Assembly (NCBI GenBank): GCA_030705825.1 | Contig: JAUZPR010000002.1 | Coordinates: forward strand, 6,101 to 70,100 | Source of the DNA: Bacillota bacterium | GTDB taxonomy: Bacteria; Bacillota; Clostridia; Acetivibrionales; JANLFN01 | Direction: 5' to 3' | DNA: 64,000 nt | Shown here: piece by piece, positions 347 to 18,814 of the stretch | Numbering within the stretch: position 1 is the first letter of the stretch | Layout of the letters: each line of letters begins with the position of its first letter | Program-made: the position numbers and the translations under genes | The notes under the pieces: generated by a model | What the model saw: the letters and a program-made list of their open reading frames with translations, nothing else | Told to the model about the DNA's origin: nothing | Databases searched by the model: none

Positions 347-390
347 ATAACAGTTGCCCTCCGGTTATGTTTTACTTTTTTATAATATAT

Positions 391-1122: not shown

Positions 1123-1149
1123 AATTTCCCCCTTAAAGAAGAACAAAAA

Positions 1150-1190
1150 TGGCTTAAATAATTCCGCCGGGTTCTGTGGACCCGGCGGAA
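1150..1190 (-). terminator. Hairpin TTCCGCCGGG-N9-CCCGGCGGAA with interrupted U-tract
   Basis: Perfect 10-bp GC-rich inverted repeat at 1162-1171/1181-1190. On the minus strand it is followed by TTATTTAAGCCATTTTT. It lies about 190 nt downstream of the glycerate kinase stop. Confidence 0.4.
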
Positions 1191-1382
1191 AAATCCCATA
1201 TAAAATTATACATTGGAGACATTAAAAAAGAAAGGTTTTCCTGCAAGAGCTGCTTCAGAAGATTATTGAAGTCCTTTTTATAACTTGTGTTTATTTCCCG
1301 ATTGCTTAATATATCAGGGTACCAAATCTGTTGAATATTCGTAGTATATATTTTTTTAGTCCAATTAAAGTACATTTATTAT

Positions 1383-2543
1383 TTAATAACTGTTACCTGC
1401 TTTTTTACGGTTTAAGTCTATCATTAGTACCCTGATAATTCTCTCTGCTGCAGCTTCCAAAAGCTGTTTCGAATTTTCAAATGCCTGTTCAAGAGACATT
1501 GGTTTATCAACTATAGAGAATATTGCATCAAAACCGTTATTGTAAAGTTCCTCAAATCCTGTACCTAAACTCCCGGCAATTGCAATAACCGGAAGATTAT
1601 ATTTTTTTGCAATTTGAGCAACACCGTATGGAGTCTTGCCGAATTTTGTCTGGAAATCCATTCCGCCTTCTCCGGTTAATACAAGATCAGCGTCTTTTAT
1701 TATATTTTCAAGTCCGGTCAATTCAATAACCAGGTCAATACCTTTTTTCATTTCCGCATTAAAAAAAGCTATCAATGCAGCACCCAATCCTCCGGCAGCT
1801 CCTGAGCCTGCACAGTCAATAACCGATTTCCCGGCAGCTTTCTCTATAAGCTTTCCGAAATGGTAAAGGTTTTTGTCCAGGATTTCAACCATATTTTTGT
1901 CTGCACCTTTTTGAATCCCATAAATATAGGATGCTCCGTTACTTCCGCACAAGGGATTATCCACATCGCAGGCCACGGTTATTTTAGATTCGCTTATTCT
2001 GCCGTCAAAACCCGACAAATCAATTGTTGAGACTTTTGACAGACTTTCACCGCCATAACCGATTTCATACCCGTTAATATCAAGAAGCTTTGCCCCGAGT
2101 GCTTGAAGCATTCCCGCTCCGCCATCGTTTGTAGCACTTCCTCCGATGCCCAGTATAAAATTTCTGCAGTCCATATCGAGCGCACCTTTTATTAGTTCAC
2201 CGAAGCCATATGTGGTAGTTTTCATCGGATTGCGTTCAGAAGCAGAAAGCAGCATTAATCCTGACGATGCAGCCATTTCGATTATAGCCGTATTTCTATC
2301 TTCCAATATTCCCATGAAAGATTCTGTAGGTCTGCCTAATGGATCTACTACCTTTTTCTTTACAATTTTGCCTTTTAATCCTTCTACCAGAGATTGTACA
2401 GTACCTTCTCCGCCGTCTGCCATAGGAACCTTGATTACTTCAATGTCGCAGGAAGCTTTTTTTATTCCTATTTCTATATGGTTGGCAACTTCATTGGATA
2501 AAAGGCTTCCCTTAAACTTGTCAGATGCCACTACCACCTTCAT
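1383..2543 (-). CDS. glxK: Glycerate kinase
   Basis: MKVVVASDKFKGSL N-terminus and full-length glycerate kinase family similarity. ATG at 2543 has an AAGGTG RBS 6 nt upstream. The track start at 2552 is a GTG inside the RBS. Confidence 0.9.
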   Translation of the reverse strand: MKVVVASDKFKGSLLSNEVANHIEIGIKKASCDIEVIKVPMADGGEGTVQSLVEGLKGKIVKKKVVDPLGRPTESFMGILEDRNTAIIEMAASSGLMLLSASERNPMKTTTYGFGELIKGALDMDCRNFILGIGGSATNDGGAGMLQALGAKLLDINGYEIGYGGESLSKVSTIDLSGFDGRISESKITVACDVDNPLCGSNGASYIYGIQKGADKNMVEILDKNLYHFGKLIEKAAGKSVIDCAGSGAAGGLGAALIAFFNAEMKKGIDLVIELTGLENIIKDADLVLTGEGGMDFQTKFGKTPYGVAQIAKKYNLPVIAIAGSLGTGFEELYNNGFDAIFSIVDKPMSLEQAFENSKQLLEAAAERIIRVLMIDLNRKKAGNSY

Positions 2544-2636
2544 ATTTATCACCTTTTCCGCTGCTTTGAATATTAAATGAACTTTTCTCTAAGTGAAAGA
2601 TTTCGAGTCAATTCATTTTAAAAACACTTTCAAAGT

Positions 2637-3830
2637 TTATAATGAAACATTTTCAAACAGCATGGAAATACCCTGTCCACCGCCTATACACATTGTAACA
2701 AGCCCTAATTTTGAATTTCTTCTCTGCATTTCATACATAAGCTTGACCGGAAGAATTACACCTGTTGCTCCAACAGGGTGACCAAGAGCAATGGCTCCTC
2801 CGTTTACATTAACTTTATCGGTATTCAATCCAAGATCATTAATAACTGCAACCGATTGTGAAGCAAAAGCTTCATTTAATTCTATCAGATCAATATCATT
2901 AACATTCATTTTAAGTCTTTCCATGAGTTTCCTTGTTGAAAGAGCAGGTGCAAAACCCATCAGTTCAGCTTCATTTCCTGCTACTGCAAAACCTTTTATT
3001 GACATAATAGGTTTAATTCCAAGTTCATCTGCTTTTTCCCTGGACATAACAACTACAGCCGCTGCACCGTCATTAATTCCGGAAGCATTTGCTGCTGTTA
3101 CACTGCCGCCTGCTTTGAATGCCGGTTTCATTTTGGACAATTTTTCTAATGTAAGTCCTCTGCGCGGGTGTTCATCGGTACTGAACCACTCTGTTTTACC
3201 TTTTCCGACAGGAACTTCAACCGGAACTATTTCATCCACAAATTTACCGTCATCAAGAGCTTTTACAGCCTTTTCCTGGCTCAGAAAAGCAAATTCGTCC
3301 TGTTGTTCACGTGTAACACTATATTTGTCTGCAACGTTTTCTGCAGTCATTCCATTGTGAAATGGTCCCAAAGGCCATGTGAGTATATCAATCAAACCAT
3401 CCTCAAGGTTTCCATGCCCCATTCTGTAACCGAATCTGGCTCCCTTTACGTAATATGGCAGCTGACTCATGTTTTCGGTTCCGCATGCTACAACAATATC
3501 AGCATTTTCTGTCTGTATTTTCATCACTGCATCTGCAATTGCTTCAAGACCTGAACCGCACTGTCTGTTAACCGAGTAGGCAGTAGTTTCCAATGGAAGT
3601 CCGGCTTTTAACGAGCACATTCTTCCTATAAATCCGTTTTCTGCAATTTGTCCTACATTTCCAACTATAACTTCATCAACCAGTTTACCATCAATATTTG
3701 ATCTTTTTATAGCTTCTTTTATTACTATAGCTGCAAGGTCAGTGCAGTGCACATCCTTAAGACTTCCACCAAAACCTCCTATTGCAGTTCTTGCCCCGCT
3801 TGTAATTACAATTTCCTTAAAACTGCCCAT
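2637..3830 (-). CDS. Acetyl-CoA C-acetyltransferase (thiolase II family)
   Basis: Thiolase motifs NRQCGSGLEA (active Cys), GHPVGATG and CIGGGQG. Start at MGSFKEIVI with a GGGGAGG RBS. Confidence 0.9.
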   Translation of the reverse strand: MGSFKEIVITSGARTAIGGFGGSLKDVHCTDLAAIVIKEAIKRSNIDGKLVDEVIVGNVGQIAENGFIGRMCSLKAGLPLETTAYSVNRQCGSGLEAIADAVMKIQTENADIVVACGTENMSQLPYYVKGARFGYRMGHGNLEDGLIDILTWPLGPFHNGMTAENVADKYSVTREQQDEFAFLSQEKAVKALDDGKFVDEIVPVEVPVGKGKTEWFSTDEHPRRGLTLEKLSKMKPAFKAGGSVTAANASGINDGAAAVVVMSREKADELGIKPIMSIKGFAVAGNEAELMGFAPALSTRKLMERLKMNVNDIDLIELNEAFASQSVAVINDLGLNTDKVNVNGGAIALGHPVGATGVILPVKLMYEMQRRNSKLGLVTMCIGGGQGISMLFENVSL

Positions 3831-3867
3831 ACTTATGACCTCCCCGTATTTTAACAATGTTTTTATT

Positions 3868-4839
3868 TTATTGCCTTAGCTTAGGCGCTTTAATGTACAG
3901 AATAACCAATATAACAAGTAAGATAATTCCCTGAATAAGTGACCTTACCCCTGCAGGCATTCCTATTGCAACCAGAATGCTTGTAAGAAGGACAAGTACT
4001 ATAGCTCCCAATGCTCCGCCAACAAGGGTTCCTTTACCGCCTGTCAGCTTGGTACCCCCAATTACTACAGCGGCTATTGAAAGCAGCGTATAATCATTGG
4101 CCATCTGAAGCTGACCGCTACCGGCATACCCTACCAGGAACATCCCGGCTAGAGCTGCAATTATTCCGCCTAAAACATATGACGCAATTGCTACAATATT
4201 TACATTTGTTCCAGCAAGCTTTGCAGCATTTCTGTTGCTTCCTACAAGATAAACCAGTTTACCGAATTTTGTTTTTCTTAAGACTAATTCCATTAAAACA
4301 ATTGCCAGAATTGCAATAATCAATAATACCCTGACAGGTCCAAACACTCTCTTGCCGACTCCCAGAAGAGCAGGAGGAATAGTTACTGAAGGTTGGCCGT
4401 TTGTATAACCTAAAGTCAATCCGTTTACTACCGATGCCATAATAAGTGTCATAACCAGCGGCGGTATTTTGATTATTTGTGATCCGAAGCCGTTTATAAA
4501 TCCAATAATTCCACCTATCAGAACCAGAGCAGCTATCATCAGAATAATCCGTCCTGATTGTCCCTTTGATATCATTGGTCCTATCAAGGCACCCATGGAC
4601 ATTATCGCTCCAAGTGACATATCTATACCTTCGCCGCCCGAAGTTATAATCAATGCCTGGCCGATTGTGGCTATTGCAAGAATACTTGCAACCGTCAGTA
4701 AATTACCTATGTTGCTTATGTCCGCAAAACCCGGACTTAAAATCTGTCCTATAATCAATAACGCTACACTGGCTATTATTGAAGGAAAAAATGTTTTCAA
4801 ATTAGTAAGACCTTTCAGGCTAAGTCCATTTCTACTCAT
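3868..4839 (-). CDS. Sugar ABC transporter permease (ribose/CUT2 type)
   Basis: Polytopic membrane protein with typical RbsC-like composition, inside an ABC operon. Confidence 0.85.
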   Translation of the reverse strand: MSRNGLSLKGLTNLKTFFPSIIASVALLIIGQILSPGFADISNIGNLLTVASILAIATIGQALIITSGGEGIDMSLGAIMSMGALIGPMISKGQSGRIILMIAALVLIGGIIGFINGFGSQIIKIPPLVMTLIMASVVNGLTLGYTNGQPSVTIPPALLGVGKRVFGPVRVLLIIAILAIVLMELVLRKTKFGKLVYLVGSNRNAAKLAGTNVNIVAIASYVLGGIIAALAGMFLVGYAGSGQLQMANDYTLLSIAAVVIGGTKLTGGKGTLVGGALGAIVLVLLTSILVAIGMPAGVRSLIQGIILLVILVILYIKAPKLRQ

Positions 4840-4866
4840 CTTTTCACCCCGTTCCTTAAGAATATA

Positions 4867-5844
4867 TCAAGCTTTATTCATAAATTTCCTGCTAAGTAAT
4901 GTAGCTCCTATAACTCCTACAAGGATTATTACTCCTGAAAAGAAATCCTGGTAAAAAGGATTAATTTTAGCAGAAAGGACTGTAGTTATTACAAGTCCCA
5001 GGAAAAGTGCACCGAACACTGACCCCAGAATACTTCCCTTACCGCCTGAAAGCGATATTCCTCCGATTACGCAGGCAGCAATTGCACTTAATGCCAGAGG
5101 AAGTCCTGCCAGGGGATCTCCCGATCCGATACTTCCTGTAAGGCACAATGCGCCTATACCTGCAAGTAATCCCGAAAAGCTGTACATGAAAAGTTGTGTC
5201 CATTTTACCGGCACAGCAGACATGTATGCCTTTTTCTCATCTCTTCCCATTGAATACAACCAGATCCTTATAGGGCTGTATTTAATGGCTACCCAAATCA
5301 GAAGAGCTGCTACTATTATGAATATTGGAGCCGGAAGGCCAAGGAAAAGGCTGTTATACCAGTTTATCAATCCCATTGGTGCCGATCCTCCGGGTGTAGG
5401 CATTATCCATAAGGCAATACCGCCAAAAACAGAGGTGGTGGCAAAAGTGGCAAGCAGGGGCGGAACTCTGAAAAATCCTACTATTATACCGTTTATCACT
5501 CCGCAGACCAACGCAATGACTAAACCCACAATTGCTGCTGAGCCGAATGACCAGCCATTGCCAACCAGGGATATGAATACAACATTGACCAAACACGTGA
5601 TAGCACCCAGCGAAATATCTATGCCTCCGCCTATCAGAACCACCGATACTCCAATTGCAATCAGTACAAGAGGTGCATTAGCCGTAAAAAAACCTATCAT
5701 AAATCCCGAGGTCAAGAATCTTCTTGTAATGAATATGTTTAAGATAACAAATAGTATAAATAGGGTTACTGCAGGCAAAAATGTCATTTTGGAAATGCTT
5801 TTTAGTACTGAAGACTGTTTTTTGTCTGTACCATGGGTTATCAT
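4867..5844 (-). CDS. Sugar ABC transporter permease (ribose/CUT2 type)
   Basis: Second RbsC-like permease. Its start overlaps the ATPase stop (ATGA coupling at 5841-5844). Confidence 0.85.
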   Translation of the reverse strand: MITHGTDKKQSSVLKSISKMTFLPAVTLFILFVILNIFITRRFLTSGFMIGFFTANAPLVLIAIGVSVVLIGGGIDISLGAITCLVNVVFISLVGNGWSFGSAAIVGLVIALVCGVINGIIVGFFRVPPLLATFATTSVFGGIALWIMPTPGGSAPMGLINWYNSLFLGLPAPIFIIVAALLIWVAIKYSPIRIWLYSMGRDEKKAYMSAVPVKWTQLFMYSFSGLLAGIGALCLTGSIGSGDPLAGLPLALSAIAACVIGGISLSGGKGSILGSVFGALFLGLVITTVLSAKINPFYQDFFSGVIILVGVIGATLLSRKFMNKA

Positions 5845-7334
5845 TTATTTCCTCCCCCTTTCGGCATTGAGTAGGCAATAATGTTCTCCTTGGTAATATC
5901 TTTTCCCATTAGTGTTTTTACAATATTGCCCTCATACATGACAATTATTCTGGACAAATGCGTATGCTTGGTCAACTCAACCAGCTCTTCATCGTCACTT
6001 GAAACCATCATAACTGCTGAACCGGCATCGGCTAAATCCCTGAATATCTTATGGATGTCTCTTCTTGCCTGAACATCAATACCTTTTGTAGGGTCATCTG
6101 CAAGAAGAACCAGCGGCATAGATGAAGTCCATCTTCCGATTACAACCTTTTGCTGATTTCCTCCGCTCAAGGTTGTAATCTGCTGTCTCGTGCTTCCAAA
6201 TACAACTCCGTAATCCTTCAAAAGTTTCATTTCATTAACCCTTGTTTTTTTAAGTACAAGATTATTAACAGCTGTAAGATTTTCCGAAACAGATCTTTCA
6301 CCGAATACTCCTTCTTTTTCCCTGTCACCCGATACAAATGCCAGACCTGACTTAACGGCTTTAATTGGTGAAGTTATATGTTTCTCGGTTCCGTCTATTT
6401 CCAGCCGAATTCCTCCCTGTAAACCGAAAACAGTCTTCAGGAACTCTGATTGTCCATGGCCCTGTAAACCGGCAATACCTATTATTTCGCCTTTTTTAAC
6501 TTCGATATTGATTTTGCTGTCAAATCTAGGAAGCACCAAATCTTTTATATTCAAAATCGTCTTTGTATTTTCGTAGACAAGACTGTTATTTTCGCTTTCA
6601 AGATCTGAATCCTTTATATCTCTTCCGGTCATTAAGGATAGCAGTTCATTTTCATTCTTTTCATTTATTTTATAAGTTCCTACAATTTCTCCGTTTTTCA
6701 TAACAGTTACAGTGTCACAGATCGAATATATTTCAGACATTCTGTGTGAGATAAAGATAACAGTACAGCCCTTTGCTTTTAAAGCATGGATAATTTCTCT
6801 AACTACTTCAACATCCTCTCTGTATAAAGCAGAAGTAATTTCATCAATAATCAAAATATCCGGCTGCTGGACCAAGGCTTTTGCAAATTCCACCATATAC
6901 TGCTGATTAGGTGCAAGTTCGGAAATTTCTTTATCTAATAAATGTTCAAGCTTTAAACTCTTTAATATCTCAAAAGCTCTCTTTTTTATTTCCTTTTTAT
7001 TTACAAACAATCCTCTGGTGACAGGTAACTGGCATATACAAAGATTCTCTTCAACTGAAAGATTTGTAAAAAGCCCTAATTCCTGAGATGTTATGACTAT
7101 TCCGTGCTTCTTTGTATTTGATGGCGATTTGGTTTTTATTACTTTATCACGTATTTTTACCGCTCCGGTATCAGGACTTACTGCGCCGCCGATAATCTTT
7201 GCGATGGTACTTTTTCCTGAACCGTTGCCTCCTAGTAACGCCCTGATTTCTCCTTCCGCCACTGAAAGGCTGGCATTCTTCAAAGCAGTTATGTTCCCGA
7301 AGGTTTTTGAAATATTTTCGCAGGTTAATTTCAT
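5841..7334 (-). CDS. Sugar ABC transporter ATP-binding protein (duplicated ATPase)
   Basis: Walker A GGNGSGKST, signature LSGGNQQK, two nucleotide-binding domains as in RbsA/LsrA-type proteins. Start at MKLTCENISKTF with a GAGGGG RBS. Confidence 0.9.
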   Translation of the reverse strand: MKLTCENISKTFGNITALKNASLSVAEGEIRALLGGNGSGKSTIAKIIGGAVSPDTGAVKIRDKVIKTKSPSNTKKHGIVITSQELGLFTNLSVEENLCICQLPVTRGLFVNKKEIKKRAFEILKSLKLEHLLDKEISELAPNQQYMVEFAKALVQQPDILIIDEITSALYREDVEVVREIIHALKAKGCTVIFISHRMSEIYSICDTVTVMKNGEIVGTYKINEKNENELLSLMTGRDIKDSDLESENNSLVYENTKTILNIKDLVLPRFDSKINIEVKKGEIIGIAGLQGHGQSEFLKTVFGLQGGIRLEIDGTEKHITSPIKAVKSGLAFVSGDREKEGVFGERSVSENLTAVNNLVLKKTRVNEMKLLKDYGVVFGSTRQQITTLSGGNQQKVVIGRWTSSMPLVLLADDPTKGIDVQARRDIHKIFRDLADAGSAVMMVSSDDEELVELTKHTHLSRIIVMYEGNIVKTLMGKDITKENIIAYSMPKGGGNK

Positions 7335-7440
7335 AATAGCCCCTCTTTCCCGAAGAGTTAACTTGTAGCTGAATATCAAGTTATCAGGCGGCTTTATAAC
7401 GTTTTAGGTCTATAAAACCGCCTGACCTTATTTTTGTTTA

Positions 7441-8628
7441 TTATTTAAAGAAGCTGTTCAACTGATCATCCGTTAATGTGGCATCCAGTGCTGCTGTAGA
7501 AGGCTGGCCCTGTCCAAGCTTAGCTGCGTCGTCAAGCTTTATAGCTTTTGTCAGGCTGTAGCCTTTCATCCATACTGCATTCGGATCGCCATCCTTAGTA
7601 ACAACATATGGCGGGTCAAGCATGATAGCATTCTTAAGGCTTGGATTCAGAGGATTAGCCTGCATTACACCATCTTTAAGCTGTTTTCCCTGAAGAAGTC
7701 TGATTGTTATTCCAAGTACGTCTGCCGACATACCAGGCGCATACGGTACACCGATTGTGTTAAGATCAGGTGTCTGTGCCCATTTGTTGAGGAATCCAAA
7801 GGTATAGTCACCTGTCATAACCGGAGGCTTTTTACCTGCTGTTTCATAAGCTCTGAGTACACCTTCTGCCATAACGTCCTGTTCAAGTATTCCGTCAAAA
7901 TTCTTATATGTGTTGATAAATGTTGACATTACTGACTGTGCTTCTGTTTCAGACCATTTGCCTGGTGCTGAAGCAAGTACTTTTATTCCGGGGTATTTGC
8001 TGAGAACATCCTTAGCTGCATTTACACGCAATGTATCTGCTGTATTTCCAGGCAATCCGGTAATTTCAACTATGTTGCCTTTTCCTTTTAACTGTTCTGC
8101 CATCCAAGTTGTCTGAATTCTCCAAAAAGCATCATTGTTACCTATAACTGCATAGGTTCCGTCATATGCTGCAGGGTCGTTTGTAATTATTACAAGAATC
8201 CCCTGTGCTTTTGCCTTTGCTATAACAGGTCCAAGTGAAGTTGCTGATACCGGGTCAATCATCAAAGCATCTACGCCGCTGCTTATCAATGTGTTTATCT
8301 GGTTGAGCTGTTGAGTTACGTCTGCATTACAGCTTACAACCTGAAAATCTTTAATTATTCCTGCATCCTTATACTTCTGGGCAGCTTTCTGGAAATCATC
8401 AACAAACTGGCTGCGCCATGTGTTTCCTATATAACCGTTGGCAAATCCTATTGTAAAACCGCTTTGCTTTGCTGTAGTACTAGCTGCTGGAGTTGAAGAA
8501 CTGCTACTGGCTGCTGAAACCGAGTTTGAAGAACTTGTACCGGTTGAGGAACTGCCGCATGCTGCAAGGCTTAATACCAAAACCATTGCTGTTATTACTG
8601 CTAATACTTTAAAAACTGTTCTTCTCAT
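7441..8628 (-). CDS. ABC transporter substrate-binding lipoprotein (periplasmic-binding-protein type I)
   Basis: Signal peptide plus lipobox LSLAAC, a Ser/Thr-rich linker, then a sugar-binding fold. AAGGAGG RBS. Confidence 0.85.
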   Translation of the reverse strand: MRRTVFKVLAVITAMVLVLSLAACGSSSTGTSSSNSVSAASSSSSTPAASTTAKQSGFTIGFANGYIGNTWRSQFVDDFQKAAQKYKDAGIIKDFQVVSCNADVTQQLNQINTLISSGVDALMIDPVSATSLGPVIAKAKAQGILVIITNDPAAYDGTYAVIGNNDAFWRIQTTWMAEQLKGKGNIVEITGLPGNTADTLRVNAAKDVLSKYPGIKVLASAPGKWSETEAQSVMSTFINTYKNFDGILEQDVMAEGVLRAYETAGKKPPVMTGDYTFGFLNKWAQTPDLNTIGVPYAPGMSADVLGITIRLLQGKQLKDGVMQANPLNPSLKNAIMLDPPYVVTKDGDPNAVWMKGYSLTKAIKLDDAAKLGQGQPSTAALDATLTDDQLNSFFK

Positions 8629-8860
8629 AACTTTCCTCCTTAAGTTTCCTTAAATTTTTGGAATAAATACACCCGCAACTCTTTATATAATGCACTGGTT
8701 TCAATGAAAGCCGTGCAATTATATTAATGGTTATTGGTTTGCCTGCATGGTTGTATCATTATCCATTCTTGCTCAAATACCCCATGTAAGGCAAACAGAT
8801 AATAGGACTCTTAAAACAAAGCTCATTTGCCTGAGTTAAAACCATTACAGATTACATAAT

Positions 8861-9613
8861 TCAGATTTTTATTTCAGGGAAATCCGAGGTCTGAAATTTG
8901 CCGATCCCGGGTTCATGTCCGGGTAAAATGTATCTGGCACGTCTTCTGATCTGTTTATAGCTATCAAATATTTGATCGGCTGAAATCAGAATATTTGGAG
9001 GAAGATTTCCATTGATATTCTCAACCAGATTACATACATCTCCAGATACGCAAAGCACGCCTTTCTCGGTGTTTACCAATACCGACTGATGTCCTCTGGA
9101 ATGACCGGGTGTTGAGAAAACCTTAATCCCCGGCAGTATTTCTTCTTCGCCGTTTGTGAAACGCCAGCTGAAGTAATTGACAGCTCTTGAGTCATATAAT
9201 TCCTCAATGTAAAACTGCTGCTGATTGATTATGGAATTGAATGCACATTCCCATTCTGCTTGCTGAACATAAAATGTTGTATTTTTAAACAGATAGTTAT
9301 TTCCGCAGTGGTCATAATGGAGATGTGTATTAATAACTATATCCACATCTTCCGGTTTCCAGCCCAAACCTTTTTCCATGGCTGCTTTCATTTCTTCATC
9401 CGCTTCCTGGTAGCAGGTCCCCAAGGTCTTGTTAACCCATTCCTTGCTTTGGATACCTGTGTCTATAATTATTTTATGCCGGTCATTATAAACAGCTGTA
9501 GACCACATAGGTATTTCAACCAACTGTCCATATCCTGCTCCTGATGTAAGAGATGACTTATCAACTACAAGCGTTCCCATTTTCAGTGATTTTACCTTCC
9601 ATATCGGTGTCAT
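8861..9613 (-). CDS. MBL-fold metallo-hydrolase (lactonase-like)
   Basis: HLHYDHCGN (HxHxDH) motif and later His residues. Size and motif resemble AiiA-type lactonases. Confidence 0.7.
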   Translation of the reverse strand: MTPIWKVKSLKMGTLVVDKSSLTSGAGYGQLVEIPMWSTAVYNDRHKIIIDTGIQSKEWVNKTLGTCYQEADEEMKAAMEKGLGWKPEDVDIVINTHLHYDHCGNNYLFKNTTFYVQQAEWECAFNSIINQQQFYIEELYDSRAVNYFSWRFTNGEEEILPGIKVFSTPGHSRGHQSVLVNTEKGVLCVSGDVCNLVENINGNLPPNILISADQIFDSYKQIRRRARYILPGHEPGIGKFQTSDFPEIKI

Positions 9614-9649
9614 TCCTTTTCCCTCCTTTCCCAGTATTAAGGATATTTT

Positions 9650-10387
9650 CTAGAGGATCATTCCTCCGCCCACATTAATAACCTCACTTGTGATATATGA
9701 TGCTTCATCCGATGCCAAAAACGCTACGAGATTTGCTACATCTTCAGGTTTTCCCGCTTTTCCTGCGGGAATTTTCCCTATCATAATATCCCATACCTTT
9801 TCAGGTACTCCTCTTGTCATATCTGTTTCTATAAATCCGGGACAAATTGCATTTACAGTAACACCTTTAGCTGCCAGTTCCCTTGCAGCAGTCTTTGAAA
9901 GACCGACTACTCCTGCCTTTGATGCTGCGTAATTTGCCTGTCCGATATTGCCAAGCCAGCTTGCCGAAGCAATATTGATTATTCTTCCGTACTGTTTTTC
10001 TCTCATCAGCTTTGCAGCCGTCTGCACACAATAAAATGTACCTGTAAGATTGACAGCTATAACCTGATCCCACTGTTCCTGAGTCATCTTGTGCAGCATT
10101 CCGTCTCTGTTTATACCTGCGTTACATACCAATATGTCAACCGTTCCAAAGGCTGTCAATGCTTCTGTAAACATTCTTTCAACATCATCGCGTACTGCAA
10201 TGTTGCCCTGAATTCCAAGTGCTTTGCCTCCGAGGGCTTCAATCTCTGCAGCAGCTTCTTTTGCATTATTTATATCAATATCGCTTATTACTACTGCTGC
10301 TCCTTCCTGTGCAAGCTTAAGGGCAATTCCCTTTCCAATTCCTCTTCCTGCTCCTGTTACTATTGCAACCTTGTTGTTCAGTCTCAA
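9650..10387 (-). CDS. Short-chain dehydrogenase/reductase (FabG-like)
   Basis: TGAGRGIGKGIA cofactor motif and YAASK catalytic motif. Preferred start is TTG at 10387, 6 nt after GGAGGTG. The track start at 10405 is an alternative. Confidence 0.85.
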   Translation of the reverse strand: MRLNNKVAIVTGAGRGIGKGIALKLAQEGAAVVISDIDINNAKEAAAEIEALGGKALGIQGNIAVRDDVERMFTEALTAFGTVDILVCNAGINRDGMLHKMTQEQWDQVIAVNLTGTFYCVQTAAKLMREKQYGRIINIASASWLGNIGQANYAASKAGVVGLSKTAARELAAKGVTVNAICPGFIETDMTRGVPEKVWDIMIGKIPAGKAGKPEDVANLVAFLASDEASYITSEVINVGGGMIL

Positions 10388-10442
10388 ACCAAACACCTCC
10401 ATCAATTTTTTCTATGCAATACTGTGTTAATTTCACAATCAA

Positions 10443-12035
10443 CTATTTCAGCAATGTCTTTAAACCAAATTTACCTTCTGTAAACAACCTGGTATCCATG
10501 GTTTTAAGCTTCTTGTCAACAATAGGCTTGAATTCCATCCTATCAAGTATATCTTTCTTTAAATCAACTCCAGGTGCTATTTCTACCAGCACAGGGCCTT
10601 CCTTCCTAAGTTCGAATACTGCTCTTTCAGTTACAAAATGCATTCTCTGGCCTTTTTCCCTTGCTATTCTTCCGTTGTAGGATATCTGTCTTACATTCTT
10701 GACAAGCTTCTTTACAGAACCTTCGTTCATTATATTTAATTTCTGATCCTTGAAATCAACCTTCAAACCGTCTGTTGTGAATGTGGAGCAGAATATTACA
10801 TGCTTTGCATTCTGGGTTATATCAACAAATCCTCCCGCTCCGGTACATCTTCCGGAAAGCTTTGTTGAATTGACATTTCCTTCAATATCCATCTCACCGG
10901 CGCCCATGAAGGTATAGTCAACACCGGCACCGTTGTAGTAATCGAATTGATAATGATGCTCTATCATGGCATACAGGTTTTTGCCTATGCCGAAATCTAT
11001 TCCGCCTGCCTGGATTCCACCGTAAATACCCGATTCAACAGTTATCATTATATCGTCCAGTATTCCTTCCTCAGCTGCTATTGAACCTATAACATCATTT
11101 GGAATACCTGTACCCAGGTTTATGATTGCATTTTTGTAAAGCTCCATCATTGCTCTTCTGCCGATAAATTTTCTGATCGACATGTCCAGCGGTTTTAAAT
11201 TATTCAGCGGAACTCTAATATCTCCGGAATATGCCGGATCAAAATACCAGGATGAGGTCTGTCTGTGGTCTGTTTGCGGGTTATCGCACACTACGATTGC
11301 ATCTATGAAAACACCCGGAACAACCACACTTTTGGGATGAATCGTTCCTGTCTGGGCAACTCTTTTTACCTGGGCAATTACCTTGCCTCCGAATCTTTTT
11401 GCTGCAAGTACTGCCGGAAGCACTTCAAGCTTCATCGCTTCTTCATCGGTAGTAAGATTGCCCATTTCATCTGCCGTAGTTCCCCTTATTATTACATGGT
11501 TAAGAGGAATTGCATTGTAAAAAAGATACTCTTCGCCTTTTATATTGATTACGTCAATCAGATCGGGCTGTGATTTTGTCCTCTCATTCATTTTTCCGCC
11601 TTCAATTCTTGGATCAATGAAAGTCCCTATACCTACTTTGGACATCTTTCCAGGTAAGCCGCAGGCCATTGACCTGTACAGCTGTGCAATCTGTCCCTGG
11701 GGCATGCAATATGCTTCAACCTTGTTATTTTCAATCATTTCCATCCATCTTGGCTGAAGACCCCAATGAGAACCTATTATTCTTGAAACAAGGCCTTCGT
11801 GGGCAAAATGCTGGATACCGTCTTTTCTGTCGCTTTGACCTGCTGAATGGACCAAGGTCAGATTTCCTGGGCTGCCGGTTTCAAGAAAGCTCTTTTCTAT
11901 AGCCTTCAAAATACTTTCTGAAGCGCTGGCCAGGGTCATTCCTATAGTTGCAATGGTATCTCCGTCATTTATAAACTTTACAGCCTCTTCGGCAGTAACA
12001 AAATTCGCTTTCACTAATCTCCCCCCCTTATACAT
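10443..12035 (-). CDS. Acyl CoA:acetate/3-ketoacid CoA-transferase (fused family I)
   Basis: 530 aa fused alpha/beta CoA-transferase with a VESGIYGG (ExG catalytic Glu) motif. Start uncertain: ATG at 12035 or GTG at 12014 after GGGGGGAGA. Confidence 0.8.
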   Translation of the reverse strand: MYKGGRLVKANFVTAEEAVKFINDGDTIATIGMTLASASESILKAIEKSFLETGSPGNLTLVHSAGQSDRKDGIQHFAHEGLVSRIIGSHWGLQPRWMEMIENNKVEAYCMPQGQIAQLYRSMACGLPGKMSKVGIGTFIDPRIEGGKMNERTKSQPDLIDVINIKGEEYLFYNAIPLNHVIIRGTTADEMGNLTTDEEAMKLEVLPAVLAAKRFGGKVIAQVKRVAQTGTIHPKSVVVPGVFIDAIVVCDNPQTDHRQTSSWYFDPAYSGDIRVPLNNLKPLDMSIRKFIGRRAMMELYKNAIINLGTGIPNDVIGSIAAEEGILDDIMITVESGIYGGIQAGGIDFGIGKNLYAMIEHHYQFDYYNGAGVDYTFMGAGEMDIEGNVNSTKLSGRCTGAGGFVDITQNAKHVIFCSTFTTDGLKVDFKDQKLNIMNEGSVKKLVKNVRQISYNGRIAREKGQRMHFVTERAVFELRKEGPVLVEIAPGVDLKKDILDRMEFKPIVDKKLKTMDTRLFTEGKFGLKTLLK

Positions 12036-13652
12036 TTAATTTAAGTACATATCTCTAAGCATTGTCTTACTTATCTTCCCGTTATTTGTATGAGGCATTT
12101 CTTCTGTAAACTGAATATATTGAGGTACCTTGAATTTTGCCAATCTTTCGGAAACCCATTTTTTAATTTCTTCTTCACTTGCACTGCAGCCCTGCTTCAG
12201 CGATATAATGGCTTTTGCAACCTCACCATACACCGGATCGGGCACTCCTATTAATGCCACTTCGTTTACTGCGGGATGATTATATATGACATTTTCTACT
12301 TCTATCGAGTAAATTTTTTCTCCCCCGCGGTTTATCATGTCTTTTTTTCTATCAACTATATAAAGAAATCCATCCTCATCTATCCTTGCATAGTCTCCTG
12401 TCCTGAACCACCCGTCAATAAAGGCATCCCGGTTCTGCTGCTTATTCCAGTAGCTGCAAAGTACATTGGAGCCTTTTACAAGCAGTTCTCCCACTTCATT
12501 ACTTGCAAGTTCCATACCTTCCTCATCTATTATCTTGATATCGAAGCCAGGAATAGGCTTGCCTGAGGAGCCGATCTTGCCGGTTTTATAGACATCATCA
12601 GGCATTATTGTGGCAGGTGAACTGGTTTCAGTAAGCCCGTATACAGTATGAAAGTCCATACCGGGTATCCAGCTTTTCAGCTTATCCAACACCGCAGGTG
12701 GCATGTTTGCACTCCCACAGGCAGCTTTACGAAGGCTGGGTACGGTTTTTAAGCTGTCCGACTCTTCCAGGAGAAGGATAAAAACTGTCGGTGAAGCATG
12801 AAAAAAAGTAATTTTATGTTCATTTATAATTTTCAATGTGCTCCCGGCGTTAAAATATGGTTCAAATACAATGGTCCCTCCTATATGCACAAACAAGGCC
12901 ATTAATGCAGCAAGTCCGGTTATATGGAATATTGGAACGGAAATCACAGTGCTGTCATCTGAAGTAAGTCCTAAAATCTTCTGGTAGCACATTATACCGT
13001 GAAGCAGGTTAAAATTCGATAACAAAGCGCCTTTCGGAGCCCCTGTAGTACCCGAAGTATATATAAGTACAGCAGGATCATCAAGGCCCGGAACCTCCAG
13101 TTTAATAAAACCTTTACTCCTTTTAACCAGGCTTTCGATTGTTTCTCCGATTTCCGGAATAGTCCCGGATCCGGATAGGATACACTTTTCAATTTTTGTA
13201 TTGGATAAAATGTTTTTTACGTTATCCCACCATTTTGCATCCAAAATGAGGATTTTTGCTTCTGAATCTATTAAAAGACGTTCAATTTCAATTTGTTTTG
13301 ATTTTGTACTGATAGGAAGAACAACAGCTCCAATTCTGGACAGCGAATAAAAAGCTGTGCAGAAATCTATGCTGTTTACCATCAGCAGCGCTACCCTGTC
13401 GCCCTTATTTACCCCATATGATGAGATCAAGCTTTCAGAGAGCCTGTCTGCTTCATTTTTAAGCTGTTCATAGGTTAATTTTCTTCCATTTTCTATAAAT
13501 GCAGTTTTATCTGGAAAAACTTCACTGGATAGTTTTAGAGTATTATATAAATTTTTTGGTATGTTCTTAAAAGTATAATATTTGCCGGATTTTAAATTCA
13601 ATTCAGTCATTTCAAATTTGGATTTACCGGATACTGCATGGCTGTCTATCAC
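12036..13652 (-). CDS. AMP-dependent acyl-CoA synthetase/ligase
   Basis: AMP-binding motifs YTSGTTGAPKGA, GWFRTGD and C-terminal GKISK. Confidence 0.9.
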   Translation of the reverse strand: MIDSHAVSGKSKFEMTELNLKSGKYYTFKNIPKNLYNTLKLSSEVFPDKTAFIENGRKLTYEQLKNEADRLSESLISSYGVNKGDRVALLMVNSIDFCTAFYSLSRIGAVVLPISTKSKQIEIERLLIDSEAKILILDAKWWDNVKNILSNTKIEKCILSGSGTIPEIGETIESLVKRSKGFIKLEVPGLDDPAVLIYTSGTTGAPKGALLSNFNLLHGIMCYQKILGLTSDDSTVISVPIFHITGLAALMALFVHIGGTIVFEPYFNAGSTLKIINEHKITFFHASPTVFILLLEESDSLKTVPSLRKAACGSANMPPAVLDKLKSWIPGMDFHTVYGLTETSSPATIMPDDVYKTGKIGSSGKPIPGFDIKIIDEEGMELASNEVGELLVKGSNVLCSYWNKQQNRDAFIDGWFRTGDYARIDEDGFLYIVDRKKDMINRGGEKIYSIEVENVIYNHPAVNEVALIGVPDPVYGEVAKAIISLKQGCSASEEEIKKWVSERLAKFKVPQYIQFTEEMPHTNNGKISKTMLRDMYLN

Positions 13653-13909
13653 CGCAATACCTTCTTCCCTGTATTTTAAAGTTATTATTGTTATTTGTTA
13701 TCCAAACCCGAATATACATATAAGCTTATTTAATTACATTAATTATTTTATTTGTCTACATAATCATTGTAATGACTGTTTATGTCCACTTGCTATACTA
13801 TTATTATAGATGCATTCCAACAAGATTAACATGTCCTCAACAAACAAAAAAGAAACCGGTTTGATTTATATTTTTGTGTTTTAAATACAAATACTTCATT
13901 TGGCTGCCT

Positions 13910-15085
13910 TTACCTTAGTTCAAGCAGATTAATGGCTATATAGAGCATTGCACATTTATACGGGTTGTTTAAGTCAAAGCCGAATGATTCCTTAAACTTG
14001 TTTATTCTGTAATTGACGGTATTTCTATGAAGAAATAGCTTGTTTGCCGTTGTCTGAAGATTCATTCCACATTCAAAATAAACCTTTATGGTATTCATAA
14101 GCTCAACCGTATTATTGTCCATGCTGTTCGCAAGTTTAAGCAGCCCCATATTGGACAGGTATTCCTGCTTTTGGTCATTTGTCAGATTACTCATGAGCAT
14201 CTGAAGCTTATAATCATCTACAAAAAACAGGTTCTTGTCGGGGTTAAGCTTCTTCCCAATGTCCAAAGCTTTGCTTGCAAGGATGTAGGATTTGTTATAG
14301 TCTTCAAATTTGTTGCATACACTTCCAATACCCATATTAAATTTCAATATATATTTTTTGCTCAATTCTTTCTGTAATAGCTTGCAGTATTCTTCTGTAT
14401 CATCACTGCAGTTTTTCAGTATTACAAACCTGTCCATATAAAGGTTTATTGCCAGATCTATCCTAGGCTTTGAAAGTCCGTTAATAATATCTACTATATT
14501 TTGCTTGATCATTTCTCTTGTGACTTCAGAGTCTTCCCCATACTGCTCAATATATGAAGAAAAGAAATTTGCATCGGCAACAATTACTACTCTCGGTACG
14601 TCCAATTTAAAATCAACAAGCTGGCTCCTGTATGAAAACAGTTCCCTGTCTTCTTCCCTATGCTCCTTTATCAATTCCTTCGCAAAGTTCCTTACAGAAC
14701 GTGATTGATATAATTCAATCTTCTTGCTTTCTTCGTTCTGTATCATCAATTCGACCAGTTCTTTTACAATAATTCCATAGCCTTCAACTTTGGAGGGCTC
14801 TCCTGAAATCCCCACGACACCGACAATCTGGCTGTTATAATAGATGGGAATGTTTATACCCTTTTGAGCTCCGCTATATATTTCCTTTTTATATTTATCC
14901 TCGTCAACAGTAATTACCTTGCGTTCATTAATTGCTGCCTTTGCTGCCTCATGAAAGGTCTGGATTCTGTCTTTGTCTCCCGAAGCAATAATAATTCCCT
15001 TTTCGTTCATAATATTTATGTTGTTTTCCAATAAATTCATCAGCCTGTTAACGATCTTCTGGCAATCAATGGTTTCAATTAACAT
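13910..15085 (-). CDS. CdaR/PucR-family transcriptional regulator (sugar-diacid regulator type)
   Basis: N-terminal diacid-recognition-like region and C-terminal PucR HTH (LFLHRNTVNYRINKFKE). Start at MLIETIDCQ with an AGGGGAG RBS. Confidence 0.8.
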   Translation of the reverse strand: MLIETIDCQKIVNRLMNLLENNINIMNEKGIIIASGDKDRIQTFHEAAKAAINERKVITVDEDKYKKEIYSGAQKGINIPIYYNSQIVGVVGISGEPSKVEGYGIIVKELVELMIQNEESKKIELYQSRSVRNFAKELIKEHREEDRELFSYRSQLVDFKLDVPRVVIVADANFFSSYIEQYGEDSEVTREMIKQNIVDIINGLSKPRIDLAINLYMDRFVILKNCSDDTEEYCKLLQKELSKKYILKFNMGIGSVCNKFEDYNKSYILASKALDIGKKLNPDKNLFFVDDYKLQMLMSNLTNDQKQEYLSNMGLLKLANSMDNNTVELMNTIKVYFECGMNLQTTANKLFLHRNTVNYRINKFKESFGFDLNNPYKCAMLYIAINLLELR

Positions 15086-15365
15086 TTTAGTGCACTCCCC
15101 TAAAAAAGCGAATGTCAAAACAGCTGCAAGGAATTGGCCTGGCAGCCTGTTGTTTTGTATTTTTTTATTATTAATATGGAATTAATGCAAATTATTTTGG
15201 TCTATTTAGATTGGAGTTAATTTAATTTGCATATGTACACGATTTGAAAACTACCATACAAAATCTGTATGGATAAATATATAAAGGTTTGACTTTCCAG
15301 TTACTAATTATAAACTGCCGGCTTTATTTTTTCAAGCTCTATACCATGGGAATATAAGACTTAGT

Positions 15366-16253
15366 TTACATATTTGGCTTCTGAACTGTATAATCATAAA
15401 ACCCTCTTCCGCTCTTTCTTCCTGTATGCCCAGCCTTAACAAGGGTACGTATCAACGGGCAGGGCCTGTACTTGGAATCCTTAAACCCTTCATACAAGCC
15501 TTCCATTGTAGCCATCATAACATCTAGCCCTACAAAATCTGCAAGTTCAAGGGGACCCATAGGCAGGTTTGCGCCAAGCTTCATTGCCTTGTCTACATCT
15601 TCCGGCTTTGAACCTTCCATAACACAAAATGCCCCTTCATTCATCATAGGAACAAGTATCCTGTTTACAAGGAAGCCAGGCAGTTCAGGTGCGTCGACAG
15701 GAACCTTTCCTATTGTCTCACAGAAATCCCTGGCTGTGTCATACGTAGCTTGTGAGGTTTGTATGCCTTTTATAATCTCTGTCAGCTTCATTATGGGAGC
15801 CGGATAGAAAAAGTGGATTGCAATTACTCTATCAGGCCGTTCCGTTACAGATGCAATTTCAGATATACTCAAACCGGAAGTATTTGATACCAAAACCGCA
15901 TTTTTACCAGCTAATTTATCGATCTGTGAAAACACCTGCTTTTTCAGTTCCATTTTTTCAGGTACTGCTTCAACTATAATGTCTGCTTCCGATATTTCTT
16001 CATAATGCGTACTGAAACGTAAGAAGGATAAAATTTCATTCATTCTTTCAGCATTAATCTTATCTTTTGACAAAAGCTTCTTAAGATTGGCTTTAACATT
16101 CTCTTCAGCTGTTTTTATCTGTTCTGGCAATATATCTATATTTACGCAGTCTATTCCAGCCTGTGCGATTGTTTGCGCAATTCCTCTTCCCATAAGTCCG
16201 GAGCCTATGACCGCTGCTTTTTTGATCTTCAAATTAAAACGACCTCTTTTCAT
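15366..16253 (-). CDS. hbd: 3-hydroxyacyl-CoA (3-hydroxybutyryl-CoA) dehydrogenase
   Basis: IGSGLMGRGIA Rossmann motif and full-length Hbd/HADH similarity. A possible TTG start at 16232 follows AAGAGG. Confidence 0.88.
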   Translation of the reverse strand: MKRGRFNLKIKKAAVIGSGLMGRGIAQTIAQAGIDCVNIDILPEQIKTAEENVKANLKKLLSKDKINAERMNEILSFLRFSTHYEEISEADIIVEAVPEKMELKKQVFSQIDKLAGKNAVLVSNTSGLSISEIASVTERPDRVIAIHFFYPAPIMKLTEIIKGIQTSQATYDTARDFCETIGKVPVDAPELPGFLVNRILVPMMNEGAFCVMEGSKPEDVDKAMKLGANLPMGPLELADFVGLDVMMATMEGLYEGFKDSKYRPCPLIRTLVKAGHTGRKSGRGFYDYTVQKPNM

Positions 16254-16357
16254 TATTTCTAGCTTACTTTTAAATTATAGTACCGGCAGAGTTTTATATA
16301 AATGTGTGCTGTATACAAAAAAGATCAATTAATTTGAAGAAATTTTGTATTAAAATT

Positions 16358-16402
16358 AAAAAACCGTTCGTACATCGGCTTCCGCCTTGCGTACAAACGG
16401 TT
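16358..16402 (-). terminator. Intrinsic terminator after the amidase gene
   Basis: Minus strand reads AACCGTTTGTAC-N17-GTACGAACGGTT followed by TTTTTT. Confidence 0.7.
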
Positions 16403-16420
16403 AATATATAATGTTATAAA

Positions 16421-17206: not shown

Positions 17207-17327
17207 ATTGACCCCTTATCTCTTGAAAGTATAGCAATATGGGCAACTTATGACAAACCGGAATTTTTCTATATACATTTTAACCTACGACAGACATTAA
17301 ATCAAACATAAGTTAAAGGGACTCCTT

Positions 17328-18335: not shown

Positions 18336-18407
18336 TAAATTATCATCCTTTCGCCATAATACAATAGTAAATATATTTTTACCCTATATATAGCTTTTAA
18401 ATTCTCC

Positions 18408-18436
18408 TTGCAATTTAATATTTTTCATGGTAGAAT
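18408..18436 (+). promoter_or_regulatory. SigA-type promoter for rpsT
   Basis: TTGCAA (18408-18413), 17-nt spacer, TAGAAT (18431-18436). Confidence 0.6.
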
Positions 18437-18538
18437 ATTCGATGTTGATTAAGCATTTAGAGGTAAAAACTGATATTACATAGAAATATAACCTTTAAAT
18501 AAAATTCGATATGCAATTTACCGCAGGAGGTGAAAAAG

Positions 18539-18802: not shown

Positions 18803-18814
18803 ATCATTATAAAC

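Follow-up and report, generated by a model that had tools for sequence, protein, structure and literature searches.

What is a sugar-type importer doing beside a lactonase, a glycerate kinase, and a set of enzymes that act on CoA thioesters? Such a cluster lies at positions 1383-16253 of the 64,000-nucleotide stretch of DNA that we analyzed (the window), which comes from the metagenome-assembled genome of an uncultured Bacillota bacterium whose nearest cultured relatives are Petroclostridium species. An earlier note on this DNA had counted thirteen genes in the cluster; we find 12 open reading frames (ORFs). As the note had said, the genes are co-directional (all are on the minus strand), and profile searches with Pfam and NCBIfam confirmed each of the families that it had named. 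Given its close similarity to a Klebsiella cluster that genetic data tie to 2-deoxyribonate, we propose that the cluster probably encodes a CoA-thioester route that would split a 2-deoxy-pentonate (most likely 2-deoxy-D-ribonate and/or its lactone) to acetyl-CoA and glycerate.

Similarity to a deoxyribonate cluster from Klebsiella

Price et al. (2019, mSystems, PMC6365646) reported that the genes BWI76_RS23695-23730 of Klebsiella michiganensis M5al are specifically needed to grow on 2-deoxy-D-ribonate and in none of 92 other conditions. These genes encode a synthetase (RS23695), a CoA-transferase (RS23700), a beta-hydroxyacyl-CoA dehydrogenase (RS23705), a thiolase (RS23710), a major facilitator superfamily (MFS) transporter (RS23715), a lactonase (RS23720), another MFS transporter (RS23725), and a glycerate kinase (RS23730). 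In the proposed route, deoxyribonate is converted to deoxyribonyl-CoA, then to 3-keto-deoxyribonyl-CoA, and then to acetyl-CoA as well as glyceryl-CoA; the latter yields glycerate and then 2-phosphoglycerate. The evidence for this route is mutant fitness, not enzymology (PMC6365646).

The window encodes a CoA-transferase (coaT; identical to MDP4091827.1) that, in a tblastn search of PLSDB, matched three K. pneumoniae records at 62.5% identity. (The next tier of matches was at about 46%.) The K. pneumoniae locus encodes, in order, the synthetase (acs), CoaT, FabG, the thiolase, an MFS permease, an SMP-30 lactonase, another MFS permease, the glycerate kinase, and a CdaR-type regulator. This is the order of the locus tags RS23695-RS23730 in K. 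michiganensis, and the K. michiganensis proteins share 90% clusters with the FabG2 and the synthetase from K. pneumoniae. Besides CoaT, the proteins from the window are 66.9% (dehydrogenase), 64.5% (thiolase), 39% (synthetase), 40% (glycerate kinase), and 24% (CdaR) identical to those of K. pneumoniae.

The core of the cluster is homologous, gene for gene, to the Klebsiella cluster. This bears out the central idea of the earlier note, a CoA-dependent route from a 2-deoxy sugar acid to acetyl-CoA as well as glyceryl-CoA, and onward through glycerate to phosphoglycerate. The steps that it had laid out from the opening of the lactone through to the kinase match the Klebsiella proposal, with orthology-level similarity and conserved context.

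The K. pneumoniae cluster has deoC, a ribokinase-family kinase, a FucP-like permease, and DeoR regulators at a distance of about 5 kb (L005, 10463-23160; L004, 4790-9000; we denote compared loci by L and a number). Of all the loci compared, Klebsiella alone has deoC at this distance from the module. In L005 (K. pneumoniae pJNQH373-1; NZ_CP091979.1), the whole segment is on a 280-kb IncFIB/IncHI1B plasmid, so the module is mobile; this plasmid copy has ISKpn1 inserted between the thiolase gene and the first MFS gene. The acs-coaT-fabG-thiolase module is also in one of 5,426 complete genomes of Escherichia coli (GF4-3; NZ_CP053258.1, 1872707-1877799), with 89% nucleotide identity to K. pneumoniae.

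A proposed pathway

In the pathway that we propose, a CUT2 (ribose-type) ABC importer would take up a 2-deoxy-pentonate and/or its lactone (we only infer which), and a hydrolase of the metallo-beta-lactamase (MBL) fold would open any lactone to 3,4,5-trihydroxypentanoate. The AMP-forming synthetase would prime the pathway by making the CoA ester of the acid, and the CoA-transferase would then keep it going: CoA would pass from glyceryl-CoA (or acetyl-CoA) to fresh acid, and glycerate would be released. An NAD-dependent, FabG2-like short-chain dehydrogenase/reductase (SDR) would oxidize the 3-hydroxyl, and an Hbd-type dehydrogenase would possibly do the same for the opposite configuration at C3. 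The thiolase would cleave the resulting 3-ketoacyl-CoA into acetyl-CoA and glyceryl-CoA, the glycerate kinase would feed glycerate into lower glycolysis, and a CdaR-type regulator would control the expression of the cluster.

The synthetase (acs; 12036-13652; Pfam AMP-binding and AMP-binding_C) is 50-60% identical to synthetases from Moorella and Petroclostridium, and we predict that it is a deoxyribonate-CoA ligase. Its stop codon abuts the start codon of coaT (10443-12035), which encodes a fused family-I CoA-transferase similar to YdiF and Pct (Pfam CoA_trans). (In K. pneumoniae, the acs-coaT pair overlaps by 4 bp.) CoaT aligns with E. coli YdiF (PDB:2AHU) across the fused alpha and beta domains (422 bits; residues 12-524 aligned). 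Glu334 of CoaT is invariant in 9 homologs and aligns with residue 333 of YdiF; from structural work on YdiF, we take Glu333 to be the catalytic residue that forms the enzyme-CoA thioester. CoaT also scores 413 bits against the FadX model, below its cut-off of 750. The predicted reaction is that glyceryl-CoA and deoxyribonate (or acetate) are converted to glycerate and the acyl-CoA.

The degradative thiolase (thl; 2637-3857; Pfam Thiolase_N/C) scores above the cut-off for TIGR01930 and has all three signatures (Cys100, His360, and Cys390). We predict that it converts 3-keto-4,5-dihydroxypentanoyl-CoA and CoA into acetyl-CoA and glyceryl-CoA.

Distribution of the module

To see which genes accompany the CoA-transferase elsewhere, we used tblastn with the proteins from the window and from Klebsiella. 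There are at least 195 relatives in all. Our census, with one genome per GTDB species, covers 80 loci, whose CoA-transferases are 64-79% identical to that of the window. These 80 loci span six phyla: Bacillota (Clostridia, Bacilli, and Erysipelotrichia), Spirochaetota (Brachyspira and Treponema), Pseudomonadota (Pragia, Budvicia, Leminorella, Serratia, Brenneria, Propionivibrio, and Succinivibrionaceae), Acidobacteriota, Actinomycetota (Coriobacteriia), and Bacteroidota. Across the relatives, the conservation of the four-enzyme core is very high (identities of 62-82%). The comparison of gene neighborhoods, which the earlier note had suggested, found the same gene set in many genomes, so the grouping of these genes is not due to chance.

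The synthetase gene is present in 64 of the 80 loci (as an acs-coaT pair) and the thiolase gene in 70. No locus lacks both dehydrogenases: 24 have the SDR only, 30 have Hbd only, and 26 have both. (Hbd is inside the module in 56 loci.) The gene orders seen most often are acs-coaT-hbd-thl (29 loci) and acs-coaT-sdr-thl (14 loci), which implies that Hbd replaces the SDR at the same position. A LacI-type regulator is found at 17 of the 80 loci. That 16 loci have no synthetase suggests that the transferase can be enough by itself. The cultured Petroclostridium sp. X23 has the full set from the window in a rearranged form: mbl-sbp-atp-perm-perm, a divergent lacI, and acs-coaT-sdr-hbd-thl-TRAP(DctPQM)-glxK. 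(Here sbp, atp, and perm are the importer genes, and glxK encodes the glycerate kinase.)

Some loci are reduced or expanded. Minimal versions (coaT-sdr or thl-coaT-sdr), with no gene for the synthetase, Hbd, or glycerate kinase within 10 kb, are found in Acidobacteriota and Propionivibrio (L045, L055, L059, L064, L066, L069, L071, and L073). These point either to activation of the substrate by just the CoA-transferase or to a different use of the module there. Heyndrickxia ginsengihumi and a Metabacillus sp. (L013 and L015) have two paralogous CoA-transferases (52-54% and 70-71% identical to that of the window) and no synthetase. In Alicyclobacillus (L086, 14726-16775), there is a second CoA_trans gene and a truncated 3HCDH ORF. 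The expanded cluster of Moorella sp. Hama-1 (L087, 700-16750) comprises LacI-acs-thl-coaT-sdr-hbd, a VOC/glyoxalase-family protein, an MBL protein, a cyclase-family protein, the ABC importer with its substrate-binding protein, a second thiolase, and a second MBL protein. (The VOC/glyoxalase family has the fold of methylmalonyl-CoA epimerase.)

The two dehydrogenases

The window encodes two dehydrogenases, and the earlier note had assigned the SDR to the oxidation of a sugar. The gene for the SDR (9650-10405; Pfam adh_short) is 37 bp downstream of coaT. The protein has the TGxxxGIG motif at residue 17, YxxxK at residue 159, and an aspartate (Asp42) after the second beta strand, which indicates a preference for NAD. 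Its best matches, in NCBIfam and in the PDB, are FabG, PhaB, and (3R)-hydroxyacyl-CoA dehydrogenase; the third-best match in the PDB is a (3R)-hydroxyacyl-CoA dehydrogenase (PDB:2ET6). In the Klebsiella cluster, FabG2 is the only dehydrogenase, and the SDR from the window is its ortholog (66.9% identity), which goes against the note's assignment.

Clusters that have the SDR and the MBL lactonase and that lack Hbd are a common type (Moorella, Fictibacillus, Clostridium magnum, and L088). The SDR from the window is 75%, 69%, and 67% identical to the SDRs from the Hbd-less clusters of Moorella, Fictibacillus, and Klebsiella, respectively, and it is 63-82% identical to the SDRs from clusters that have both enzymes. 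Since these identities are alike whether or not Hbd is present, there is no sign of a functional split. Because the SDR is the ortholog of the sole dehydrogenase of the Klebsiella cluster, and because Hbd-less clusters with the SDR and the lactonase are common, we read it as acting at the acyl-CoA level. Most likely, the SDR is a 3-hydroxyacyl-CoA (deoxyribonyl-CoA) dehydrogenase and not a sugar 1-dehydrogenase.

The FabG from the K. pneumoniae cluster matches known structures (PDB:7TZP and PDB:6T6N); its alignment to 7TZP, as printed over 244 residues, has one mismatch. The CoA ester of a 3-hydroxy sugar acid, and not an acyl-ACP (acyl carrier protein), is probably what it acts on in the cell. 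A passage in a later paper cites 6T6N as "FabG2 (NADH-dependent)".

The other dehydrogenase, Hbd, is encoded by the first gene of the cluster in transcription order (15366-16253; Pfam 3HCDH_N and 3HCDH), which is set apart from the genes for the other enzymes. Its identity is 70% to the Hbd from the module of Petroclostridium xylanilyticum and 49.8% to the canonical Hbd of Clostridium acetobutylicum (PDB:6AA8), and it scores 366 bits against the NCBIfam model for 3-hydroxybutyryl-CoA dehydrogenase, below the cut-off of 408.

Why would one cluster have both enzymes? FabG/PhaB-type SDRs normally act on 3-hydroxyacyl thioesters of the D-(3R) type, while 3HCDH/Hbd enzymes are normally L-(3S)-specific. 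The C3 hydroxyl of 2-deoxy-D-ribonate has the D configuration. (It is formally 3S, but only through a swap of Cahn-Ingold-Prelog priorities.) Hbd adds a dehydrogenase whose usual stereospecificity is the opposite one, and it might admit the C3 epimer. The C3 stereocenter is lost upon oxidation, so only the dehydrogenase must match the configuration of the substrate at C3, and to exchange it or to add another would be the smallest change that lets the C3 epimer in. More speculatively, the alternation of SDR and Hbd could be functional: clusters with the SDR only, Hbd only, or both would correspond to the D-erythro epimers, the threo epimers, or both epimers of 2-deoxy-pentonates. Such a division would account for the exchange of SDR and Hbd at a single position in an otherwise orthologous module. 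We derived this idea from the usual stereospecificities of the two families, and we would not bet on it, although it is possible. If it is true, then there is a widespread "beta-oxidation of 2-deoxy sugar acids," with a dedicated ABC importer for the lactone or the acid, that spans anaerobic Bacillota, gut Lachnospiraceae, Coriobacteriia, spirochaetes, Acidobacteriota, and Enterobacterales, and the CoA-transferase cycle would make the activation of the substrate free of ATP cost.

The lactonase and the importer

The predicted lactonase (8861-9613; Pfam Lactamase_B) resembles AiiA. Its best families in NCBIfam are AiiA lactonase (139 bits, with a cut-off of 375) and 4-pyridoxolactonase (102 bits), and both scores are below the cut-off. 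It has the motif HLHYDH at residue 97, and the downstream metal ligands (GH and D) align with those of AiiA. Tyr194 of AiiA, which is involved in binding the lactone, aligns with an asparagine. Judging from these scores and alignments, the protein has the fold and the metal site of AiiA, but it is not an equivalog of the acyl-homoserine lactone (AHL) lactonase. We predict that it is a 2-deoxy-aldonolactonase. An unrelated SMP-30 lactonase is encoded at the equivalent place in Klebsiella, which supports this role by analogous replacement. In the window's cluster, we found no homologs of SMP-30 or of the MFS transporters, and the tblastn census found no SMP-30 homolog in any of the 80 loci. It appears that the MBL lactonase and the CUT2 importer fill the roles of the SMP-30 lactonase and the MFS transporters as analogs, not homologs.

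The lactonase gene is directly upstream of the importer genes. These encode a lipoprotein substrate-binding protein (SBP; 7441-8628; Pfam Peripla_BP_4) with the lipobox LSLAAC near its N terminus, a tandem ATPase (5841-7379; two ABC_tran domains), and two permeases (4867-5844 and 3868-4839; Pfam BPD_transp_2). The stop codon of the ATPase gene overlaps the start of the first permease gene. The SBP is weakly similar to the named sugar SBPs in NCBIfam (64 bits or less), and the nearest SBPs of known structure in the PDB score 107 bits or less, which is too weak to assign a ligand. The adjacency of the MBL and SBP genes is kept in L006, L008, L086, L087, and L088. In all three contexts of SBP homologs that we looked at (51-66% identity), the order MBL-SBP-ATPase-permease-permease is found beside the CoA module. 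(The homologs come from Alicyclobacillus, from Moorella sp. Hama-1, and from a metagenomic type that is abundant, being present in 328 collection blocks.) Because of this conserved order, the lactonase and the importer look like a dedicated sub-module of a deoxyribonate-type pathway.

Other versions of the cluster have transporters of organic-anion types, namely galactonate-type MFS, PanF/MctP-like sodium:solute symporters (SSF), or tripartite ATP-independent periplasmic (TRAP) transporters. In the census, the MBL lactonase occurs only in clusters with MFS or CUT2 ABC transporters and never in those with just an SSF transporter (Fisher p = 1e-5). This pattern hints that the lactone is a possible transported form. 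We also considered a simple rule in which acid-type transporters go without a lactonase and neutral-type transporters go with one. It was only partly upheld, as the MFS protein beside the MBL lactonase of Moorella is an anion-type permease (of the galactonate/aromatic-acid family). Because the lactonase travels with the ABC importer, the imported compound is probably the acid or its lactone.

Glycerate kinase and CdaR

The last gene of the cluster (glxK; 1383-2552) encodes a class-I glycerate kinase of the GlxK/GarK family (505 bits to Pfam Gly_kinase; 485 bits to TIGR00045, above the cut-off). Among 3-hydroxyacyl-CoAs, only 3,4,5-trihydroxypentanoyl-CoA yields a C3 glyceryl unit upon thiolysis. 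At 33 of the 80 loci (co-directional in 31 of the 33), glxK is no more than 10 kb from the module; of the 50 loci that have 8 kb or more of sequence on both sides, 24 have it. By our estimate, the chance that a single-copy gene would lie within about 20 neighbors is well under 1%, so the linkage is far beyond chance. It is seen whether or not CdaR is present, and in five phyla or more.

The regulator (13910-15118) belongs to the CdaR/SdaR type, with an N-terminal domain for recognition of sugar diacids (Diacid_rec, 136 bits), GGDEF_2, and a PucR-type helix-turn-helix (HTH_30, 69 bits). At 177 bits against the equivalog model for E. coli CdaR (cut-off 612), it is a member of the family and not an equivalog. 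A cdaR gene is beside the module in 16 of the 80 loci, and 15 of these also have glxK. Loci with glxK and without cdaR are found in Coriobacteriia, Bacteroidota, Brachyspira, and C. magnum, and glxK abuts acs in many loci.

Alternative explanations

Several observations weigh against the proposed deoxyribonate pathway. We infer every substrate and reaction, and the Klebsiella counterpart rests on fitness data, not enzyme assays. Also, we equated the clusters of K. pneumoniae and strain M5al through their gene order and shared 90% clusters rather than through the sequences of M5al. The synthetase, the kinase, and the regulator have just 24-40% identity to their Klebsiella counterparts, and the lactonase (MBL instead of SMP-30) and the transporter (ABC instead of MFS) are not homologous to those of Klebsiella. 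The importer is of the CUT2 type, which would be expected for neutral sugars more than for acids. In P. xylanilyticum, the nearest named relative, the module is with a branched-chain-type ABC system, and neither the MBL gene nor glxK is nearby. About half of the related loci (47 of 80) lack glxK within 10 kb. Because of these loci and the context in P. xylanilyticum, the module may serve more than one 3-hydroxy acid. Finally, we searched for an operator in the intergenic regions that lie upstream of five genes, namely hbd, cdaR, acs, sbp, and glxK (k-mers of 12-16 with 1-3 mismatches, on both strands), and found no motif that is shared across the predicted transcription units, only AT-rich noise.

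The absence of glxK from many loci leads to one rival explanation: the chemistry would be the same, but the substrate would be another lactone-forming 3-hydroxy acid, and glxK and cdaR would be an adjacent and separate unit for glycerate. Candidates include 3,4-dihydroxybutyrate (or 3-hydroxy-gamma-butyrolactone), a 2-deoxy-hexonate, and 3-hydroxybutyrate or acetoacetate. The pairing of cdaR with glxK, as well as the different transporter in P. xylanilyticum, would fit this explanation, and the single enzymes do resemble enzymes for acetoacetate or 3-hydroxybutyrate. But in the window, glxK is just 84 bp after the thiolase gene, with no terminator predicted between them, and elsewhere it is linked to the module without cdaR. 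The glyceryl unit is expected only from the trihydroxy acid, the Klebsiella genes had phenotypes on deoxyribonate alone (PMC6365646), and the LacI or CdaR regulators and the transporters of the sugar-acid type speak against plain fatty acids and ketone bodies as substrates. We consider a different acid to be rather unlikely for the window's cluster.

The version in the earlier note differs at the start of the pathway. A free 2-deoxy-pentose would be imported, the SDR would convert it to the lactone, the MBL protein would open the lactone, and only Hbd would act on a CoA ester. This would suit a CUT2 importer, since these usually carry neutral sugars; it would give a role to each of the two dehydrogenases, one of which is in principle free for a step at the sugar level; and "glucose 1-dehydrogenase" is among the many NCBIfam matches of the SDR. 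However, the best matches of the SDR are the FabG, PhaB, and (3R)-hydroxyacyl-CoA dehydrogenase families, and SDRs from Hbd-less clusters are as similar to it as those from clusters with two dehydrogenases. Furthermore, some clusters have the MBL lactonase, the ABC importer, and the SDR without Hbd (L088 and L008), and there, the SDR must perform the CoA step. With the SDR assigned to that step, no sugar-oxidizing enzyme is left in the cluster, and the lactonase travels with the importer, so the import of the free sugar gains no support and is quite unlikely. Still less probable, in our view, is that the MBL protein is a glyoxalase-II-like thioesterase that acts on glyceryl-CoA, with the rest of the deoxyribonate pathway unchanged. 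GapMind does list an unknown glyceryl-CoA hydrolase for the oxidation of deoxyribonate, which this protein could be; the MBL fold includes hydrolases of hydroxyacyl thioesters; and Tyr194 of AiiA is not kept. On the other hand, the best MBL families are lactonases (AiiA, 4-pyridoxolactonase, and AttM), not GloB; the gene goes with transporter genes, not with the thiolase gene; the SMP-30 lactonase among the transporter genes of Klebsiella suggests replacement by an analogous lactonase; and a CoA-transferase that could release glycerate is already present.

Two other kinds of pathway were rejected. Pfam searches found no crotonase (ECH), acyl-CoA dehydrogenase, or Etf among the 12 ORFs or in the immediate flanks. 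Along with the sugar-acid-like context, the lack of crotonase, Bcd, and Etf rejects an operon for butyrate or classical beta-oxidation, as the earlier note had recognized. Similarly, no match to BKACE (DUF849) was found among the 12 ORFs (Pfam), so we rejected the BKACE route.

Transcription units and flanking genes

The earlier note had described the cluster as having short gaps between the genes. This is true in part, but four of the gaps are of 84-257 bp: hbd-cdaR (247 bp), cdaR-acs (257 bp), mbl-sbp (232 bp), and thl-glxK (84 bp). Given these gaps, we predict about four transcription units (hbd; cdaR; acs-coaT-sdr-mbl; and sbp-atp-perm-perm-thl-glxK) rather than a single operon. Upstream of hbd is its own promoter-like site (16302-16274), and there is a weak hairpin 3' of the gene (15272-15254).

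The cluster seems to be closed by a strong intrinsic-terminator-like hairpin 3' of glxK (1190-1162, minus strand; -23.8 kcal/mol, z = -4.1), with an 11-bp stem, 8 GC pairs, and a T-rich tail. At the 5' boundary, another strong terminator-like hairpin (16402-16362, minus strand; -22.9 kcal/mol, z = -4.9), directly followed by UUUUUU, is 3' of the upstream amidase gene. Between glxK and the gene for an M50B peptidase is an ORF of 73 amino acids (1154-1375, minus strand) that has no match in Pfam and has the terminator hairpin in its 3' end. It is probably not a gene.

The cluster is set in a conserved neighborhood, with housekeeping and sporulation genes in its flanks (M50B peptidase, amidase, Gpr, HolA, and ComEC). 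Positions 16421-64000 encode the amidase, Gpr, HolA, ComEC, NlpC/P60, a histidine kinase, type-III glutamine synthetase (GS-III), FabF, pyruvate, phosphate dikinase (PPDK), a class-II aminoacyl-tRNA synthetase, DnaK, and LepA. The GC content within the cluster is 0.39-0.43, slightly above that of the flanks (0.35-0.38). A scan with Rfam of positions 1-20000 found no riboswitch or other RNA family.

Implications

This type of pathway is already published, as a genetic proposal from one Klebsiella strain in 2019. What is new here is a predicted member from Bacillota that has one more dehydrogenase and whose lactonase and importer are not homologous to those of Klebsiella. The earlier note was not aware of a counterpart in Clostridia, and indeed, the literature that we searched describes no version from Bacillota. 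For later work on deoxyribonyl-CoA, glyceryl-CoA, or a version from Firmicutes, our literature search gave only Price 2019 and papers that cite it.

The module is widely spread among anaerobes, including common lineages from the gut, and it is repeatedly coupled to glycerate kinase, lactonases, and importers for organic acids. Cultured carriers of the pathway genes include Petroclostridium sp. X23, Moorella, and Clostridium magnum. The proposed pathway also gives a functional context to an already-solved structure of unknown role, K. pneumoniae FabG2 (7TZP/6T6N), and would correct likely misannotations such as "FabG," "propionate CoA-transferase," "caffeate CoA-transferase," and "long-chain fatty-acid CoA ligase."

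Deoxyribonate is a product of the oxidation of deoxyribose and DNA, and it is excreted in human urine. Because of this origin of the substrate, the pathway may have a part in how carbon from DNA is turned over in anoxic habitats.

Comparison with known systems

The closest known system is the acyl-CoA route proposed for Klebsiella. The two clusters have the same order of synthetase, CoA-transferase, and FabG-like SDR, and both also have a thiolase, a glycerate kinase, a lactonase, and a CdaR-type regulator. They differ in the lactonase, which has the MBL fold in the window and is an SMP-30 protein, embedded among the transporter genes, in Klebsiella. They also differ in uptake, which would be by the CUT2 ABC importer with a lipoprotein SBP in the window, and by two ACS-family MFS permeases in Klebsiella. 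The window has the extra Hbd-type dehydrogenase, and its host is an anaerobic, spore-forming Bacillota bacterium.

A different route for the oxidation of deoxyribose and deoxyribonate, via BKACE, is known from Pseudomonas simiae WCS417, Paraburkholderia, and Burkholderia (PMC6365646). It is the only deoxyribonate route in GapMind, whose rules do not include the acyl-CoA route. The logic is the same: C3 is oxidized, the bond between C2 and C3 is cleaved to give an acetyl unit and glyceryl-CoA, and glycerate kinase follows. Clusters for the BKACE route also hold a lactonase and sugar-acid transporters. But that route needs AtoAD and AtoB for acetoacetate, whereas the window has the synthetase, the CoA-transferase, and the thiolase instead, and no BKACE.

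The window's CoA-transferase has the same fold and the same position of the catalytic glutamate as the YdiF/Pct-type CoA-transferases of E. coli and Clostridium propionicum and the staphylococcal FadX. In contrast to these, it is part of a tight clade (with identities of at least 62%) that goes with the module of synthetase, SDR/Hbd, and thiolase, and not to ydiQRST or to fadE-type beta-oxidation genes. Finally, the clostridial pathway for butyrate and crotonate (Thl-Hbd-Crt-Bcd-EtfAB) has a thiolase and an Hbd-type dehydrogenase in common with the window's cluster. Unlike that pathway, the cluster lacks crotonase, acyl-CoA dehydrogenase, and Etf, and its enzymes are encoded instead beside a sugar-acid-type regulator, a transporter, a lactonase, and a glycerate kinase.

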